A stretch of 64,000 nucleotides of DNA from an uncultured Oscillospiraceae bacterium (GTDB taxonomy: Bacteria; Bacillota; Clostridia; Oscillospirales; Acutalibacteraceae): positions 12,371 through 76,370 of the forward strand of contig USCI01000001.1 of assembly GCA_900553255.1 (NCBI GenBank). Direction: 5' to 3'. The notes below the pieces were generated by a model. It made no database searches and was not told the DNA's origin. It saw nothing but the letters and a program-made list of their open reading frames with translations. The position numbers and the translations under genes were made by a program. Positions 18,707-27,345 of the stretch are shown here, one piece after another. Positions within the stretch are counted from its first letter, which is position 1. Every line of letters starts with the position of its first letter.

Positions 18707-19856
18707 TCATTCCTCGTTCACAACCTTTGCACGTAGCAACAGACAGTCATGTGGAGCAATAGAGGCAGTATAGCGATAATCGCAGGTTTCGGATACGTCC
18801 CCAGTCCAGAGATTGGTCATGACCAACTTTTTACCGCAGGAACGGTTGAGGCCCAATTCCGCCATACAGAAATAAAAGTTACTGACATCGTCGGATAGAT
18901 TGAACAGGCCGATGGCGAAATCTCCATTGTTCAGGAGTCGTGCCATGATAAAGCAGTCCTCTGTACCACCGCGTACATCTGTCTGGTTTCCACCAAGCAG
19001 AAACGGCTGACAATAGGCAGGATCCTGATTAATGGCCAGCACCTCTTTGTTCATCAGTATGGTGCGTGTCTGCTCATCCATATGACGAATATCGCAGCCA
19101 ATCATGAGGGGAGAGGCAAAGAAAGCCCAGAGTGAAAAATGGGTGCGGTATTCAGCGAAGTCGCACCCCTGGAGACCGACATGTCCCTGGCCATTCATGC
19201 CCACTACCAGCATATCCATATCGTTAAAGCAGCCATGGCCGTTGTAGGGAAACAGCGCTCGCTGTTGCTTGGTCAACGATTTTATTGATTCCCAGGAGTC
19301 TACAATATCCGGAGTAGAGCGCCACATGTGGGCACCAGTGGTTTTAATCCAGCGGTGGGTTTCATCAGCCCCCCCAGGAGCAAGCGCTGAAAAGGATATC
19401 CCGGCCGCAGTTGGCCAGAGCAGTTCCCATGCGTCGGTAAAGCAGGTCTCCCGTATCCTCCGCCGGCTTGAAGCAGTAATCATATTTCAGAAAATCTACG
19501 CCCCATTCAGCAAAGTTTTGGGCGTCCAGAAATTCGTGCTCATAACTGCCCGGATATTGTCCGCAAGTCATACAGCCTGCGCAGGAATAAATACCAAATT
19601 TCAACCCCTTACTGTGCAGATAGTCCCCCACCGCTTTCATTCCATGAGGAAACTTATCCGTATTCACGACTAGCCGGTGCTGGTTATCCCGCTGCTTTCG
19701 CGCCCAAGTATCATCAATGACAACATATGTATAGCCGGCATCACGCAGTCCACTTTCCACCAACACATCTGCACATTCAAAAATGAGTTGTTCGCTGATT
19801 TTATCCGCAAATGTATTCCATGTGTTCCATCCTATAGGAGGTGTCAACTGATTCAT
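18707..19856 (-). pseudogene. GH27 alpha-galactosidase interrupted by a +1 frameshift in a G7 homopolymer
   Basis: N-terminal ORF (19365..19856): 'PPIGWNTWNTF', 'YVVIDDTW', 'LKYDYC'. C-terminal ORF (18707..19483): 'GAHMWRSTPDI', 'NDMDMLVVG'. The frames join if one base of the C7 run at 19369-19375 is removed. Confidence 0.85.
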
Positions 19857-21333: not shown

Positions 21334-22305
21334 TTAAAGCACCGCCAATGCCAGCCACAGCACGCCCGCTGTGGTCAGCAGCGCCGGCGCGCTGCGGAAG
21401 GGCCTCGGCAGATCGCTGTTGTCCACCCGGTACCAGACGGCGGCAAACAGGCAGCCGGCCGCAAACAGGATTGCCGCGCCGGCAAGCTGCCAGAGCAGGG
21501 CCTGCCAAATCCCGGCCGAGCGGCAGGACAGCCACGCCGTAAACGCGGCCGCCGCCATCCATACTCCATCCGCCGCCTCCGGCTTATACAGCCAGGACAG
21601 CGCGGCGACGGCCGTCACAAACGCGGCGGCGGACGGCAGCCATTCCTCCGGGAATACCGGCCAGATCATCCTCAGAAGGCTGAGCAGCACGCCCGCGGCC
21701 AGCGCGATCAGCGCAGCCAGTGCGGCCGGGAGGATCCCTTCGGCCGGACGCGGCGGCGCCACCGGCTTCCCCCGCAGGCAAAACAGCGCGAGAAGCAGGC
21801 CGGCCACCACCACACCGCTACCGCCGGCCGCAAAATCCGCCGACAGGCCCGCAGGCAGCAGACGTACCGCAAACACGGTGCCGTAGGCGAGCAGCTCCCG
21901 CACGGCGCCGATGACCACCGGCGCAAGGGCGGCGAGATAAACCCGTCCGCCCGACGGGGGCGTTTCGCTCCACTCCTCCGCCGCCGGCGCGCAGCTGAAC
22001 ACCATCGCATAAAACAGCCACAGCGGCGGCAGCCGGTCGGCCACGGCAGGCCAATATGCCAGCAGCAGCACCCGCGACAGCGTTGCGAGAAAGGCAGCGG
22101 TGAGCAGCAGCGCACCCTGCCGTATGGCGGCGGGCAGCGGCCGGAACAGCCGGGCAACCGGGATCAGGATCAGCAGCAGCCACGCGCCGAACATGGTCAC
22201 CAGCAGGCCGCCGAAGCCCGACACGCCGGCCGCCGCGCCCGTGCACAGCAGCACCGTCGATGCGGCCAGCCCGCGGTGCGCCGCCGTTTCCTTGGTATTC
22301 GTCAT
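21334..22305 (-). CDS. Rnf/Nqr-type membrane subunit, apparent RnfE-RnfA fusion (divergent)
   Basis: N-terminal half: 'AYWPAVADRL' and 'VIGAVRELLAYGTVF' resemble RnfE 'AYVPALYNSLG' and 'GSIREILGNGTIF' (from memory). C-terminus 'DLPRPFRSAPALLTTAGVLWLAL' resembles the RnfA end 'DIPKPFKGIPITLITAGLLALAF'. About 9-10 TM helices. Confidence 0.6.
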   Translation of the reverse strand: MTNTKETAAHRGLAASTVLLCTGAAAGVSGFGGLLVTMFGAWLLLILIPVARLFRPLPAAIRQGALLLTAAFLATLSRVLLLAYWPAVADRLPPLWLFYAMVFSCAPAAEEWSETPPSGGRVYLAALAPVVIGAVRELLAYGTVFAVRLLPAGLSADFAAGGSGVVVAGLLLALFCLRGKPVAPPRPAEGILPAALAALIALAAGVLLSLLRMIWPVFPEEWLPSAAAFVTAVAALSWLYKPEAADGVWMAAAAFTAWLSCRSAGIWQALLWQLAGAAILFAAGCLFAAVWYRVDNSDLPRPFRSAPALLTTAGVLWLALAVL

Positions 22306-22329: not shown

Positions 22330-23310
22330 TCAGCGGGCCGCATCGCGGACAAACCGGTACGCGAGATTGGCCGCGCGCACCACCGCTTTGGAGGATACGG
22401 TCGCGCCGGATACCGCGTCCACCGCGCCGCCGTCGCCGGGAACGGCGACCGTATTATCCTGACCGGCGGCCTCGGCGAGCGCCTGCGCCGCCAGCTCAAC
22501 GAATTCCCCGACCGAAACCGACACACCGGCATAGGCGTCGGTTTTGCCGTCCGCTTCGTTATATACCAGCTTTGCCGGGTCCTGCACGCTCAGCAGTGCG
22601 TTTTCCATGGTCTGCGCCTGCTCATGCCAGCCGGGGCCGTCCTCGGTCATCACATACCGTCCGGCGAGCGATTCCGCCTTTTTGGTGGAATCGCTGTCCC
22701 GCTTGTCGGCGTCCCAGTTGACCGCCGTGATCTTCCCGCCGGATATGGTCAGCTCCACAAAGGCGCGGTAGCCGGCGCCGTCATAATCCGGTTTCTGTGC
22801 CCGGTATTCGCCGTCGGCCCACACCGTCTGCACAGGCGGGGCGGACGTATCCCCCGGCTCATCGATGCCGGTATAGCCGCCCACCGAGGCCGGTGCGGCC
22901 AAGGCGGTAAACTGGCCGTAAAACGCTTCCTCGGTGACCCGGGAGCCGTAGCCCATCGTTTCACTGTTGCGGCCGACCCGCAGGCCGATAAACCGCGACG
23001 CATCCGGCGAAAGCGCCGTTTTGACCTCGAGATCCCCGCCGTAGCCCTTCACCTGCACCGTGACCGCATAGCCGATCACCGCACCGGATTCATCGAGTGC
23101 GCGATAGGCCGACACGATGCCCTCCGCGTCCCCGGCGTCCATCGCCTCATAGCGTTCTGCCTCGAGCAGGCCGGAAAAATTCTCACGTACCGCCTGTTCC
23201 TCCTGCCGGACGGCCAGCGTTCCGGACACCTTGTCCATCCCCCACAGCAGGCCGACCGAAGCCACGCCGACAATCAGCAGATTCCGTACGGTTTTTCCCC
23301 ATGTTTTCAT
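22330..23310 (-). CDS. rnfG: RnfG-like FMN-binding subunit with a ~130-aa inserted second FMN_bind-like domain
   Basis: N-terminal TM anchor. 'GYGGDLEVKTAL', 'NSETMGYG' and C-terminal 'VDAVSGATVSSKAV' (flavinylation-type SGAT motif). At 326 aa it is much longer than a typical RnfG of about 200 aa. Confidence 0.7.
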   Translation of the reverse strand: MKTWGKTVRNLLIVGVASVGLLWGMDKVSGTLAVRQEEQAVRENFSGLLEAERYEAMDAGDAEGIVSAYRALDESGAVIGYAVTVQVKGYGGDLEVKTALSPDASRFIGLRVGRNSETMGYGSRVTEEAFYGQFTALAAPASVGGYTGIDEPGDTSAPPVQTVWADGEYRAQKPDYDGAGYRAFVELTISGGKITAVNWDADKRDSDSTKKAESLAGRYVMTEDGPGWHEQAQTMENALLSVQDPAKLVYNEADGKTDAYAGVSVSVGEFVELAAQALAEAAGQDNTVAVPGDGGAVDAVSGATVSSKAVVRAANLAYRFVRDAAR

Positions 23311-23329: not shown

Positions 23330-24256
23330 TCAAGCGGCGTGCCGGCCGACCCGCACGCCGTACACCCGCGGCATGGTCAGCCATTCGATCAGCGGCGCTG
23401 CGGCGTTCATCAGCAAAATCGCAAAGCAGACCCCCTCGGGATACGGCCCCCAGATGCGCAGCACCGCCGTCAGGATGCCGACCCCTGCGGCAAAAAGACA
23501 TTCCCCTACCGGCGTCGTCGGCTTCGAGGTGAAATCGGTGACCATAAATACCGCGCCGAGCAGCAGGCCGCCGGACAGCAACTGCGCGGCCGCCGCCCCG
23601 GTGAAGGGCGTCGTTCCGCCGAATATCCAGTAGACCAGCGCAAAGCTCCACACACAGGTAACCGGCACCCGCATGCGGATTACCCCGCGCAGGCACAGAT
23701 ACACCATGCCGATCAGGATCAGCAGCGCGGAGGTTTCCCCCATGCTGCCGTTCTCATAGCCGAAGAACAGCGGCCACAGGGACGCATCCAGACCGGCTTC
23801 GGCAATCGGGGTGGCTGAGGATACGGCGTCCGGGCGCACATAGCCGCCCAGCGTCTGCGGCAGGGCGACCAGCAGCAGGGCACGACCGGCCATCGCCGGG
23901 TTGAACAGGTTGTGCCCGATACCGCCGGGCAGCTGCTTGACCACTGCGACGGCGAAAACGCCGGCCAGAGCCGCCGCCCAGAGCGCCGTACCCGCCGGCA
24001 GGGACAGCCCCAGCAGCAATCCGGTTACCGCCGCGCTGCCGTCAAAGCCGCCCCGGCCGCGCAGCTTCAGGCAGACCCAGTCCGCCAGGGAACACACCGC
24101 GGTGGTGGTCGCCAGAACGGCCGCCGCCTGCCAGCGGAACAGCCACACCGCCCACGCACACACCGGCAGCAGCGCGATCACCACGTCGGCCATGATAGCG
24201 GAGGTGGTGCGTTTTCTCCGGATATGCGGGGCGGCCATTTCCTGTTTTATCGCCAT
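23330..24256 (-). CDS. rnfD: Rnf electron-transport complex subunit D
   Basis: 'APHIRRKRTTSAIMADVVIALLP' typical N-terminus. 'DAVSSATPIAEAG' FMN-attachment motif. About 8-10 TM helices. Confidence 0.9.
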   Translation of the reverse strand: MAIKQEMAAPHIRRKRTTSAIMADVVIALLPVCAWAVWLFRWQAAAVLATTTAVCSLADWVCLKLRGRGGFDGSAAVTGLLLGLSLPAGTALWAAALAGVFAVAVVKQLPGGIGHNLFNPAMAGRALLLVALPQTLGGYVRPDAVSSATPIAEAGLDASLWPLFFGYENGSMGETSALLILIGMVYLCLRGVIRMRVPVTCVWSFALVYWIFGGTTPFTGAAAAQLLSGGLLLGAVFMVTDFTSKPTTPVGECLFAAGVGILTAVLRIWGPYPEGVCFAILLMNAAAPLIEWLTMPRVYGVRVGRHAA

Positions 24257-24379: not shown

Positions 24380-25666
24380 TCATCGTTTCGCCGCACGCGC
24401 CCGGGCGCGGATGCCCTCCCGCGCCATGCCCACCCGCGCGGCAAGCGGCCGCTTGGCCGGACAGGTGTACGAGCAGCAGCCGCAGGAGATGCACTGCGCC
24501 GCGTGCAGCGCTTCACAGACATCCCGCCGTCCGGCGATCACCGCCGCGTCGATCGCAAAGGGCTGCAGCCGCGACGGGCACACCCTCGCGCAGCCGCCGC
24601 AGCGGATGCAGGGCTGTTCGGTCCATCCGGGACGCCCGAGCAGTATCAGCCCGGACGTGGATTTGGTCATCGGCACATCCAGCCGGTCGAGCACCCGGCC
24701 GGTCATCGGCCCGCCGAAAACCGCGGTCAGCCCCTCGCCGCCCGCGCCGCCGCAGAAGGCCAGCAGGTCGCTGAGCAGGGTACCCACCGGCGCATAGACG
24801 TTGCCGGGATGCGCCACCTGCCCCGCCACCGTCACCAGCCGGTGGGTCAGCGGGAAGCCCGCCATCGCGTCCGAAAGCGCCGCGGCGGTGGCGACATTAT
24901 TCACGATTGCGCCGACATCGGCGGGCAGGCCGCCCTCCGGCACCTCCCGTCCTACCGCCGTCTGGATGAGCTGCCGCTCGCCGCCCTGCGGGTAGCGGTC
25001 GGGCAGCTCGAGGATTTCCACCCCGAACGGCAGCGCCGCCTCCCGCAGCTTTTTCACCGCGTCCGGCTTATTGCTTTCCACGCAGATTTTTACCGCCGCG
25101 CCCGCCGCCTGGCCGAGCGCCGCCGCGCCCGCCACCACCCGGTCGGCATGCCGCACCATCAGCTGATGGTCACAGGTGAGATACGGCTCGCATTCGCAGC
25201 CGTTGACCAACACCCAGTGGATCGCCTTATCGGTTTCGTACTTCACCGCGGTCGGAAACCCCGCACCGCCCATGCCGATCAGCCCTGCCTCCCGCATAAG
25301 GGTACGCAGGCCCTGCGCACCGGGCAGGTGCTTGATCCCCGGCGCCGGCGTGTCGCAGCCGTCGTTTTCCACCACCACACACAGGCCTTCTCCTTCGAGG
25401 CAGGGACGGTTTTCCACCGCGGTGACCGTGCCGGACACGCTGGCATGCACCGGCACCGACATTTTCCCGTCCGCCCGGCCGATCAGCTCACCCTTTCTCA
25501 CCGTCTGCCCCGGTTCCACCACCGGCAGCGCCGGCTTAGCCAGCCCCTGCGCCAGCGGGATGACCACCTGCGGCGGGGCAAGGGTCTGCACCGGCAGGTT
25601 TGCCGTCTCCTCTTTATGCTCGGTCTGATGCGGGAGAGCGATGCCCCCGCTGAATTTTGCGCCCAT
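24380..25666 (-). CDS. rnfC: Rnf electron-transport complex subunit C (NADH/FMN and 2x[4Fe-4S])
   Basis: 'GMGGAGFPTAVKY', 'CECEPYLTCD', 'CIRCGGCARVCP' and 'CISCGCCSYTCPA'. Confidence 0.9.
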   Translation of the reverse strand: MGAKFSGGIALPHQTEHKEETANLPVQTLAPPQVVIPLAQGLAKPALPVVEPGQTVRKGELIGRADGKMSVPVHASVSGTVTAVENRPCLEGEGLCVVVENDGCDTPAPGIKHLPGAQGLRTLMREAGLIGMGGAGFPTAVKYETDKAIHWVLVNGCECEPYLTCDHQLMVRHADRVVAGAAALGQAAGAAVKICVESNKPDAVKKLREAALPFGVEILELPDRYPQGGERQLIQTAVGREVPEGGLPADVGAIVNNVATAAALSDAMAGFPLTHRLVTVAGQVAHPGNVYAPVGTLLSDLLAFCGGAGGEGLTAVFGGPMTGRVLDRLDVPMTKSTSGLILLGRPGWTEQPCIRCGGCARVCPSRLQPFAIDAAVIAGRRDVCEALHAAQCISCGCCSYTCPAKRPLAARVGMAREGIRARARAAKR

Positions 25667-25687: not shown

Positions 25688-26734
25688 TCACTCATCCAGA
25701 CAATGCCCGGCAAAGCCCAGGGTCATCTCCCGGCTGCCGTCCGCAAATATCCACAGTGCATCGACAGCCGGCAAGCTCTCCACCGCTGCCCGGCCGGTGG
25801 CATACGGCTGTGCGAACAGTGCGGTGGACAGGTAGTCCGCCGTAAACGCATCCGGCGCCAGCACACACACCGCACGGCAGTAGCGCGCCGGATACAGGGT
25901 GGATTCTTCCAGGATATGCGCATAGTATGTCCCGTTTGCGGCAAAATACTTCTGGTAATCCCCGCTGACCCCCAGGCACCGGTCGGTGAGAGCCAGCGTC
26001 ACGCTGTATTCCGGCACCTCCCGGCGTCCGGACAGGTTGAGCACGGCGTCCGGCTCCCGCAGGGCGACCGTCCAGCCGCTGCTCTCCGGCGGCGCGCCGG
26101 CGCACACCATGGTGCTCTCCCCGAAATCCAGCAAAAAATCGGTCAGCCTCAGTTCGCGCAGCCGCGCTGCGGCGGCATCCGCCGCGTGGCCCTTGCCCAC
26201 CGCGCCGAGATCGAGCGACAGCTCCGGGTCGGCGATGGTGATTTTTTCGCTTTCCGGATCCGCAATAACCTGATCCAGCGCCATGTGCTCCCCCGCATGC
26301 TGCAAAGCGGCAGCATCCGGCAGCACGCCGGACGCCCGGGCCTGCTCCCACAATCGCAGCACCGCCCCCATCGCGATGTTCGTCCCCGGCACCCGGGCAT
26401 ACAGCGCCTGGCAGCGGCCGACCAGCGCACACAGCTCCGCCGGGCAGGCAGCCGTGCCGCCCGCCGCCGCATTCACCCGGGACACCGCACTGTCCGGCCG
26501 GTGGACGTCGAGCAGCGCTTCCTGCCGCTCCAGCTCCCCGCGCACCGCCTCCACCGCCCGGATGAACTCCGCTTCGTCGGCACAATACACGATCATCCGC
26601 GATACGGTATCCATTGCCCCGATAAACTCGGTGGAAAACCGCCGCGGCGCGGGATCGGCCGCCTGCGCCATACAGCCGGTCAGACCCACACAAAGGATGG
26701 TCAATATCCCCAAAAACATCCGGCGCATCTTCAT
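25688..26734 (-). CDS. apbE: ApbE-family FAD:protein FMN transferase lipoprotein
   Basis: Lipobox 'LTGC'. 'MDTVSRMIVY', 'SAVSRVN' and 'LDLGAVGKGHAAD' ApbE-like motifs. First gene of the rnf-like operon. Confidence 0.85.
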   Translation of the reverse strand: MKMRRMFLGILTILCVGLTGCMAQAADPAPRRFSTEFIGAMDTVSRMIVYCADEAEFIRAVEAVRGELERQEALLDVHRPDSAVSRVNAAAGGTAACPAELCALVGRCQALYARVPGTNIAMGAVLRLWEQARASGVLPDAAALQHAGEHMALDQVIADPESEKITIADPELSLDLGAVGKGHAADAAAARLRELRLTDFLLDFGESTMVCAGAPPESSGWTVALREPDAVLNLSGRREVPEYSVTLALTDRCLGVSGDYQKYFAANGTYYAHILEESTLYPARYCRAVCVLAPDAFTADYLSTALFAQPYATGRAAVESLPAVDALWIFADGSREMTLGFAGHCLDE

Positions 26735-26865
26735 CCCCCTAACAAATCGCAGGCTTGACCCGATATTGTCCTTTTATTGTGCCCCGAAGTATGGTATAGT
26801 TTGTACAAAGTGGATGAATTTTTTCTCCGACCGTTGAATAACGGATGCGAAAGGATGAGGCTTCG

Positions 26866-27345
26866 ATGAAAAGAACCCATTGGTTTTCCGGAGCGGCAGG
26901 GATCGCCTGTGCGCTGATGATGGCGGCCATGCTGTCAGGATGCTCGAAGGAACCGGCGGGCAGCGATGCGGGTTCCGCTCCCGCAAGTGACACCGCCGCT
27001 TCCACCACCGCGGAGACAACGCCGGCTACCACGACGACCACTCTGCCGGGCGAGCCGGCGGCCTATCCGGTGCGCGGCTGGTGCTCGGACGATGACGTCC
27101 TTGTGCGCAGCGGGCCGGGCAAGGAATACGGCGCCATCGGCGGTGCGCACAAGGGCGAGCAGTTCAGCGTGCTCGGGCGCGAAGGCGACTGGTACAAGGT
27201 GCAGCATGGCGAGGACGAGGGCTATATCAGCGCCCAATTCATCCGGTTCAGCCTCGAAGAGGCGATGGCGACGACTACCACCGAAGCGCCGACCACCACG
27301 GCGGATACCGGCGAGAATTCCGCGCAGGAGGGACAGGATTCCTGA
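26866..27345 (+). CDS. SH3b-domain lipoprotein with Thr/Ala-rich linkers
   Basis: Lipobox 'MLSGCS'. 'VLVRSGPGKEYGAIGGAHKGEQFSVLGREGDWYKVQHGEDEGYISAQFI' is a bacterial SH3 motif. ATG 26866 follows GAGG. Confidence 0.75.
   Translation: MKRTHWFSGAAGIACALMMAAMLSGCSKEPAGSDAGSAPASDTAASTTAETTPATTTTTLPGEPAAYPVRGWCSDDDVLVRSGPGKEYGAIGGAHKGEQFSVLGREGDWYKVQHGEDEGYISAQFIRFSLEEAMATTTTEAPTTTADTGENSAQEGQDS

Follow-up and report, generated by a model that had tools for sequence, protein, structure and literature searches.

The gene described here, which we name rnfG*, lies in a stretch of 64,000 nucleotides (hereafter the window) of contig USCI01000001.1 from an uncultured Oscillospiraceae bacterium. It is a minus-strand open reading frame at positions 22330–23310 that starts with ATG and encodes an RnfG-type protein of 326 amino acids (aa). 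The open reading frame list, split matches to FMN_bind and RnfG models and an AlphaFold2 model identify the product as an RnfG-like subunit in which one flavin mononucleotide (FMN)-binding domain is nested in another. The gene belongs to a tight minus-strand operon with the order apbE, rnfC, rnfD, rnfG* and a gene for a 323-aa membrane protein. The first gene, apbE (25688–26734, −; Pfam ApbE, E-value 7.6e-51), encodes a lipoprotein flavin transferase; a first-pass annotation made from the letters alone had called it adjacent to rnfG*, and it does share the operon, three genes upstream rather than directly beside it. The rnfC paralog (24380–25666, −; TIGR01945, 382.9 bits) encodes the module for reduced nicotinamide adenine dinucleotide (NADH) and FMN, with two 4Fe-4S motifs, and the rnfD paralog (23330–24256, −; TIGR01946, 250 bits) retains an intact flavinylation motif, DAVSSAT; both score above the respective cut-offs. 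The last gene (21334–22305, −) encodes a fused, diverged RnfE–RnfA membrane subunit, as judged from a profile of 50 homologs.

RnfG* starts and ends like RnfG, and the strings first taken as signs of this are all present: GYGGDLEV at residues 89–96, NSETMGYG at 115–122 and VDAVSGATVSS at 297–307. Residues 1–44 (23179–23310, −; MKTWGKTVRNLLIVGVASVGLLWG) form an N-terminal membrane anchor with a positively charged N-terminus, modeled by AlphaFold2 as a helix at 3–44; by analogy with the topology of RnfG structures (7zc6_G alignment), the protein beyond the anchor would lie outside the membrane. The N-terminal part of the outer RnfG FMN_bind domain, a β-sheet that includes GYGGDLEV and NSETMGYG, follows at residues 45–138 (22897–23178, −; RnfG model match at 40–138, alignment to 7zc6_G 14–139). 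Residues 139–164 (22819–22896, −) comprise a conserved short strand (AP..V.GYTG, with P140 invariant) and then a first flexible linker, and a second flexible linker at residues 283–295 (22426–22464, −) leads back to the outer domain. Between the two linkers lies the inserted domain of the 2kzx/PplA type (residues 165–282; 22465–22818, −). The C-terminal part of the outer domain, with the motif DAVSGAT (Thr304) and the final helix, occupies residues 296–326 (22333–22425, −). Residues 168–201 of the protein read EYRAQKPDYDGAGYRAFVELTISGGKITAVNWDA, and residues 258–270 read DAYAGVSVSVGEF.

The split of the outer domain is visible in the Pfam and NCBIfam profile matches. Pfam FMN_bind (PF04205; gathering cut-off 22 bits) matches RnfG* with 49 bits in two separate stretches, the C-terminal of which places residues 294–318 on profile positions 52–76 of 77, while the NCBIfam RnfG models cover only residues 40–138 and 283–322. 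When residues ~139–288 were removed in silico, the FMN_bind match became contiguous (profile positions 1–76 of 77) and the RnfG models aligned end to end, which bears out the domain-within-domain arrangement suggested in the first-pass annotation. In the alignment to the RnfG of C. tetanomorphum (7zc6_G), residues 12–137 correspond to 14–139 and residues 296–321 to 156–181, so that ~158 residues stand where 7zc6_G has 16; this is a net insertion of ~140 residues, slightly more than the 130 or so estimated before. The insertion point is the last β-hairpin of the RnfG FMN domain, ~10 residues before Thr304. RnfG* scores below the curated RnfG cut-offs (63.4 bits against 102 for TIGR01947; 81.8 against 230 for NF041840) and still does so with the insert deleted (63.4 and 91.4 bits, respectively); it is RnfG-like, not an equivalog. 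The other traits of RnfG are present, namely the anchor helix, the C-terminal DAVSGAT and a gene position between rnfD and the RnfE/A fusion. G302, A303 and T304 of DAVSGAT are invariant among 59 aligned homologs. Taken as a whole, we regard the nested architecture of RnfG* as nearly certain.

The insert itself was compared with sequence and structure collections. Alone, it matches 2kzx with an E-value of 1e-20 over residues 165–282 at 39–45% identity, with TDAYAGVS opposite TDAISGAT. The 2kzx entry is the nuclear magnetic resonance structure of the 131-aa Clostridium thermocellum protein A3DHT5, which scores 31.8 bits on Pfam FMN_bind. The insert also matches positions 181–291 of the NCBIfam PplA model NF041941 (E-value 1e-6). 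The profile parsing proposed at first thus gave a divided result: the outer domain yielded its split match, and a Pfam scan of the window's insert alone, with E-values up to 10, returned no FMN_bind match, the outcome that had been named in advance as refuting the proposal. The sole match in that scan was Beta_helix_3, judged to be due to chance. Orthologous inserts do score on the same profile, with 24 bits in Blautia hansenii, above the cut-off of 22, and 21.4 bits in one Acutalibacteraceae protein, just short of it, and the missing match appears to be a problem of sensitivity, not a real absence. The membership of the insert in the FMN_bind family is thus one of transitive homology, its own Pfam match being absent and its match to 2kzx strong.

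AlphaFold2 modeling from an alignment of 59 sequences gave two confident domains, with a mean predicted local distance difference test (pLDDT) of 87.3. Values below 50 are confined to residues 153–161 and 285–293, i.e., to the two linkers, and the insert is modeled as folded, in line with the expectation that it would not be disordered. A Foldseek search with the model retrieved 2kzx (E-value 3e-9), the RnfG structure 7zc6_G (4e-7) and 3o6u, followed by NqrC structures. Across the 59 homologs, W199, K210, W228, Q231, G255, T257 and D258 of the insert are invariant, and the insert ranks among the best-conserved parts of RnfG*. The 2kzx and PplA matches, the Pfam scores of the orthologs, AlphaFold2 and Foldseek together support the initial impression that the insert resembles an FMN_bind domain; it is accordingly predicted to be a folded member of that family nested in another FMN_bind domain.

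To assess the distribution of this architecture, a pattern scan was run on 185,579 species genomes, 320 of which encode a relative; 93 homologous proteins share the nested arrangement. The best 80 of the 320 belong to Ruminococcaceae/Oscillospiraceae, 'Avimonas', Acutalibacteraceae and Lachnospiraceae and include Blautia hansenii, Mediterraneibacter agrestimuris, Diplocloster and Herbinix hemicellulosilytica; Anaerocolumna cellulosilytica is a further carrier. Frameshift, misassembly and chance were rejected as explanations, because the architecture is conserved in ~320 species genomes. The gene order RnfC–RnfD–RnfG*–RnfE/A is intact in ~77 of 85 loci, the remainder being mostly interrupted by contig ends. 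Of these 85 loci, 39 have an ApbE gene no more than 4 kb from the module. In the Ruminococcaceae-type clade it is upstream and co-oriented; in Lachnospiraceae it comes from another ApbE lineage and stands on the opposite strand. Two orientations and two lineages suggest two independent recruitments of ApbE to the module.

The longer forms of RnfG*, with 430–470 aa, contain two inserts in tandem. Tandem copies are 45–100% identical within one protein, and the insert therefore appears to have been duplicated repeatedly, in part very recently, in both orders. Copies 97–100% identical were seen in several Blautia-type genomes (loci L067, L070, L081, L084 and others). Repeated tandem duplication is as expected of a modular relay unit.

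The remaining subunits were examined for their cofactor sites. RnfD is here a stand-alone protein of 308 aa with PF03116 only, NADH binding being provided by the separate RnfC, and its motif D-x-x-S-x-A-T is kept across the aligned family. Of 70 RnfC homologs, 65 retain GGAGFP together with the two CxxCxxCxxxCP motifs. The 323-aa polytopic protein itself has no Pfam match. Its homologs were collected from neighboring genes in the loci, a word-indexed search having given five close matches. In the 50-homolog profile, its N-terminal half resembles RnfE (7zc6_E, E-value 4e-13) and NqrD, and its C-terminal half resembles RnfA (9eri_A, 6e-8). RnfE-type cysteines are kept in part of the family only; the window protein retains C21 and C105, which coincide with the canonical sites or lie close to them. 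The RnfA-type ligand cysteines are absent throughout the family, and the fused subunits of Lachnospiraceae have none at all. With both ligand positions of the RnfA-like half devoid of cysteine, the four-cysteine [2Fe-2S] site is predicted to be unable to form in any member of the family. No RnfB is encoded in the module in any of the 85 loci. In four Acutalibacteraceae loci (L042–L045), RnfE and RnfA are encoded as two genes (~175 and 169 aa), either an unfused ancestral state or a secondary split.

Next, the surroundings of the module were inspected. Recurrent neighbors are limited to ApbE, an SH3_3 lipoprotein and housekeeping genes in synteny (rpsO and PNPase). The lipoprotein (26845–27345, +; 166 aa, SH3_3-like domain) is divergently oriented from apbE in the window, and the same layout is found in 21 Ruminococcaceae-type loci; it may belong to the system, e.g., as a cell-wall-bound partner. 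In ~15 loci of two families (L001, L002, L007, L009, L010 and loci of Acutalibacteraceae), the genes for rpsO and polynucleotide phosphorylase come next after the module. Downstream of the module in the window, an island of low guanine plus cytosine (GC) content with AraC and alpha-galactosidase genes takes their place, which suggests an insertion at that point. Within it, two overlapping open reading frames at 18707–19856 (−; 258 and 163 aa) together resemble one frameshift-split alpha-galactosidase; this stretch has a GC content of 48–54% and lies beside an AraC regulator and a fragment resembling an insertion sequence.

A different contig of the same genome (G000:C57) encodes a complete canonical Rnf operon, rnfCDGEAB, whose subunits share 37% (RnfC), 44% (RnfD) and 29% (RnfG) identity with the module proteins. 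RnfB was found elsewhere in the genome in all 22 carrier genomes tested, and the module is therefore always a second system in this set. The canonical RnfG (G000:C57:2588-3154, −) carries the motif DGVSQAT, with Gln in place of the consensus Gly. Of the three ApbE paralogs in the genome, the operon copy is the most divergent; the other two (G000:C25:14406-15221, −, and G000:C5:41181-42002, +) score ~290 bits on the Pfam model, compared with 174 for the operon ApbE.

We then considered whether both FMN_bind domains could carry covalent flavin. The C-terminal DAVSGAT fits the ApbE consensus D-x-x-[S/T]-G-A-[S/T] in full. The corresponding motif of the insert, DAYAGVS (residues 258–264; 22519–22539, −), aligns with DAISGAT of 2kzx and keeps the D, the G and the terminal S of the consensus, making Ser264 the candidate FMN site. 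G262 is nearly invariant beside the invariant G255, T257 and D258. Among the 93 homologs, the motif varies by clade: DAY[AT]GVS in the Ruminococcaceae-type clade, to which the window belongs, D-x-V-[AS]-G-V-S in Lachnospiraceae, and the canonical DAY[ST]GA[ST] in Acutalibacteraceae proteins of the same architecture. Ser or Thr ends the motif in every homolog listed. A link between the GVS motif and the presence of ApbE in the locus was rejected as evidence for a specialized ApbE; the pattern follows clades, and Acutalibacteraceae loci have no adjacent ApbE whichever insert motif they carry.

An exhaustive HMMER search with the insert retrieved 449 cluster representatives with one to six domain copies per protein. 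In the best 144 of these 449 proteins, GV[ST] and SV[ST] forms (AGVS 41, SGVS 39, ASVS 19, TGVS 17, SGVT 15, AGVT 11) outnumber GA[ST] forms (SGAT 8, SGAS 7) by ~7:1. Since they dominate the 2kzx-type subfamily, D-x-x-[AST]-[GS]-V-[ST] appears to be the norm of that subfamily and not a decayed SGAT; its terminal Ser/Thr is retained almost without exception. The replacement of SGAT by AGVS, noted at first, is real; it is not an oddity of RnfG*, GV[ST] being the commonest form in the whole 2kzx-type subfamily. One 2kzx-type protein (P0102, among P0100–P0243) carries six DVVSGVS motifs in tandem. Searches with [S/T]GA[S/T] would miss such predicted multi-flavin proteins. PplA was considered as experimental support for GV[ST] and rejected, as the bona fide PplA (L086) has TGAT twice.

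Published mutagenesis bears on the variant motif. An Ala-to-Val exchange retained ~50% of flavinylation and a Thr-to-Ser exchange lowered it by 10–55%; Ser is an accepted attachment residue, and seven residues suffice as a recognition tag (reviewed in PMC12052999). The small lipoprotein TP0171 was flavinylated in vitro, with enzyme specificity (PMC4436053). We consider that Ser264 of the insert probably carries FMN, which would be a second covalent flavin on RnfG*; two flavin sites had been held possible in the first-pass annotation.

In canonical Rnf, as known from Rnf and Nqr structures, electrons shuttle via the RnfG flavin between two partners: the RnfA/E [2Fe-2S] center, which receives them from RnfB and ferredoxin, and the RnfD flavin, the link to RnfC and NAD(H). 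We hypothesize that RnfG* is the membrane-anchored outward flavoprotein of a second Rnf-derived complex composed of RnfC, RnfD, RnfG* and the fused RnfE/A. ApbE, most likely the operon copy, would attach FMN to Thr304 (DAVSGAT) and Ser264 (DAYAGVS), thereby placing two covalent flavins in series on one protein. Electrons would then pass from NADH through RnfC (FMN, two 4Fe-4S) and RnfD (FMN) to the RnfG flavin, the insert flavin and an extracytosolic acceptor. The ferredoxin/RnfB/[2Fe-2S] branch would have been lost, and the nested domain would pair with the RnfG flavin in its stead. The simplest interpretation is a linear route from NADH outward, given that the RnfC–RnfD–RnfG arm is intact, the RnfB/[2Fe-2S] arm is gone and the insert is the sole new element; it is similar to the schemes put forward by Meheust et al. 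2021 (PMC8238504) for multi-flavinylated RnfGs and for two-gene NQR/RNF-like systems. The sequences show the nested architecture, the FMN_bind homology of both domains, the conservation of the module, the loss of RnfB from the module and of the four-Cys site, and the retained cofactor motifs of RnfC, RnfD and RnfG; a covalently bound FMN in the insert, the direction in which electrons flow and an external acceptor are predicted elements of the model. We judge the overall relay, from NADH to the extracytosolic side by two flavins in series, to be the probable explanation of the locus. For the outward direction with an external acceptor as such, we would put the chances at below even.

Several observations weigh against the relay. 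The insert motif departs from the ApbE consensus at two positions, having Ala at position 4 and Val at position 6, and the window's insert stays below the Pfam threshold. The predicted template modeling score of the AlphaFold2 model is 0.59, a value at which the mutual orientation of the two domains and their flavin sites is not predicted. RnfB is available elsewhere in the genome in every carrier tested, and no conserved gene for a terminal reductase or acceptor accompanies the module among the loci examined. The first two points, together with the reduced flavinylation of the published Ala-to-Val mutants (PMC12052999) and the existence of related flavoproteins with non-covalent flavin, as described by Huang et al. 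2024 (PMC10979944), would suit an FMN_bind fold that holds a non-covalent flavin or another ligand, or serves as a docking or shielding module, leaving the FMN on Thr304 as the only covalent one. Yet conservation in the insert peaks at the motif region GKTDAxxG[VA][ST], a terminal Ser or Thr is found in the listed homologs without exception and in more than 100 domain copies of the subfamily, Acutalibacteraceae orthologs have a perfect GA[ST] at the same place, and ApbE was seemingly recruited to the module twice independently. An insert without covalent flavin thus strikes us as unlikely, although it is the most serious of the competing explanations.

The presence of RnfB in trans also allows the module to be seen as an ordinary isoform of the ferredoxin:NAD+ oxidoreductase that borrows the canonical RnfB, with the insert as a lineage-specific decoration that has no role in electron transfer. 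The intact cofactor motifs of RnfC, RnfD and RnfG agree with this, as do C21 and C105 in the RnfE-like half of the window subunit. However, the [2Fe-2S] center that links RnfB to RnfG is predicted to be unable to form family-wide, RnfB is absent from the module in 85 of 85 loci, and an insert that is strongly conserved and was duplicated repeatedly points to a functional role; we regard such an isoform as improbable. Canonical Rnf is reversible, and the lack of an acceptor enzyme near the module could fit inward flow. In that case, electrons from an extracellular donor, such as reduced flavins or a partner organism, would be taken up by the nested flavin domain and travel via RnfG, RnfD and RnfC to NAD+, perhaps with the ion gradient as the driving force. 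But reduction of NAD+ from donors at the flavin level is uphill, and the ion-coupling elements of the reduced complex are uncertain, its [2Fe-2S] site being lost; inward flow, too, seems to us to have little in its favor.

Rnf is a central energy-conserving ferredoxin:NAD+ machine of many anaerobes. If the NADH-to-outside relay proposed above holds, a second version of it, without the ferredoxin branch and with an outward flavin relay, would be widespread in gut Clostridia, and abundant gut commensals such as Blautia, Ruminococcaceae and Acutalibacteraceae may deliver electrons from NADH to the cell surface with neither quinones nor cytochromes. With predicted FMN sites at Ser264 and Thr304, RnfG* is a concrete protein for such tests. 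Gly-Val-Ser/Thr may extend the range of motifs recognized by ApbE, which would change genome counts of flavinylated proteins. The nested topology suggests a way of building a redox relay, by inserting a cofactor domain into a loop beside another cofactor site. More tentatively, and with doubts somewhat outweighing confidence, the module may represent an unrecognized class of ferredoxin-independent NADH:extracytosolic-acceptor oxidoreductases with a covalent flavin wire of one or two inserts, common in gut Clostridia beside canonical Rnf, with D-x-x-[AST]-[GS]-V-[ST] as an undescribed ApbE motif of a large subfamily with up to six repeats per protein.

With canonical RnfG (TIGR01947; 7ZC6_G, 9ERI_G, 8AHX_G), RnfG* shares the N-terminal anchor, the FMN_bind fold, the C-terminal D-x-x-S-G-A-T followed by a helix, and the gene position between rnfD and an rnfE/rnfA homolog; it differs in having ~140 more residues, which make up a further FMN_bind domain within the last hairpin. 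Canonical Rnf has six subunits (RnfABCDGE) and a [2Fe-2S] center held by two Cys each of RnfA and RnfE, whereas the module has neither RnfB nor the four-Cys site. The small stand-alone FMN_bind proteins 2KZX (A3DHT5) and 3O6U (CPE2226) are related to the insert, which shares the fold and the motif position of 2kzx; the latter, however, is a free-standing protein of 131 residues with SGAT, and the insert is nested in an FMN_bind domain and carries AGVS. By size, the experimentally flavinylated lipoprotein TP0171 (Tp15) seems to fall into one class with these proteins, a putative kinship taken from the naming of P0073 and from the literature.

Searches of the accessible literature returned nothing specific on modules of the RnfCDG type or without RnfB, nor on FMN_bind domains nested in one another, and a search of Meheust et al. 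2021 (PMC8238504) for the carrier genera gave no matches. RnfG and FMN_bind domains as such are known; the nested topology, the status of GV[ST] as the norm of a family and the four-subunit module lacking RnfB seem not to have been described before. PMC8238504 and PMC10979944 present multi-flavinylated RnfGs and extra FMN_bind domains as a path to extracytosolic acceptors and propose that partial Rnf/Nqr sets work unidirectionally. The RNF clusters of those multi-flavinylated RnfGs are defined by the presence of RnfB, unlike the RnfB-less module described here, in which the additional domain is nested rather than appended. The NQR/RNF-like system of PMC8238504 consists of two genes, an RnfD–NqrF fusion (PF00175) and an RnfG-like subunit, and its RnfD flavinylation site is lost; the module, by comparison, has a stand-alone RnfD with an intact site, RnfC for NADH and a retained RnfE/A fusion.

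The likeness to two-domain flavinylated lipoproteins of extracellular electron transfer, raised in the first-pass annotation, is real and distant. RnfG* scores 28.7 bits on the PplA model against a cut-off of 325, in the second-domain part only, and has a transmembrane anchor and no lipobox; the bona fide PplA L086 scores 442 bits and is encoded beside an ApbE/FmnB gene. PplA (NF041941), known from extracellular electron transfer in Listeria, and RnfG* have in common an extracytosolic location, two FMN_bind domains per chain, ApbE/FmnB encoded nearby and a proposed role as an outward electron relay. PplA, though, is a lipoprotein with two tandem domains, both with TGAT, and is fed by Ndh2, quinone and EetAB, whereas the two domains of RnfG* are nested and would be fed by RnfC and RnfD.

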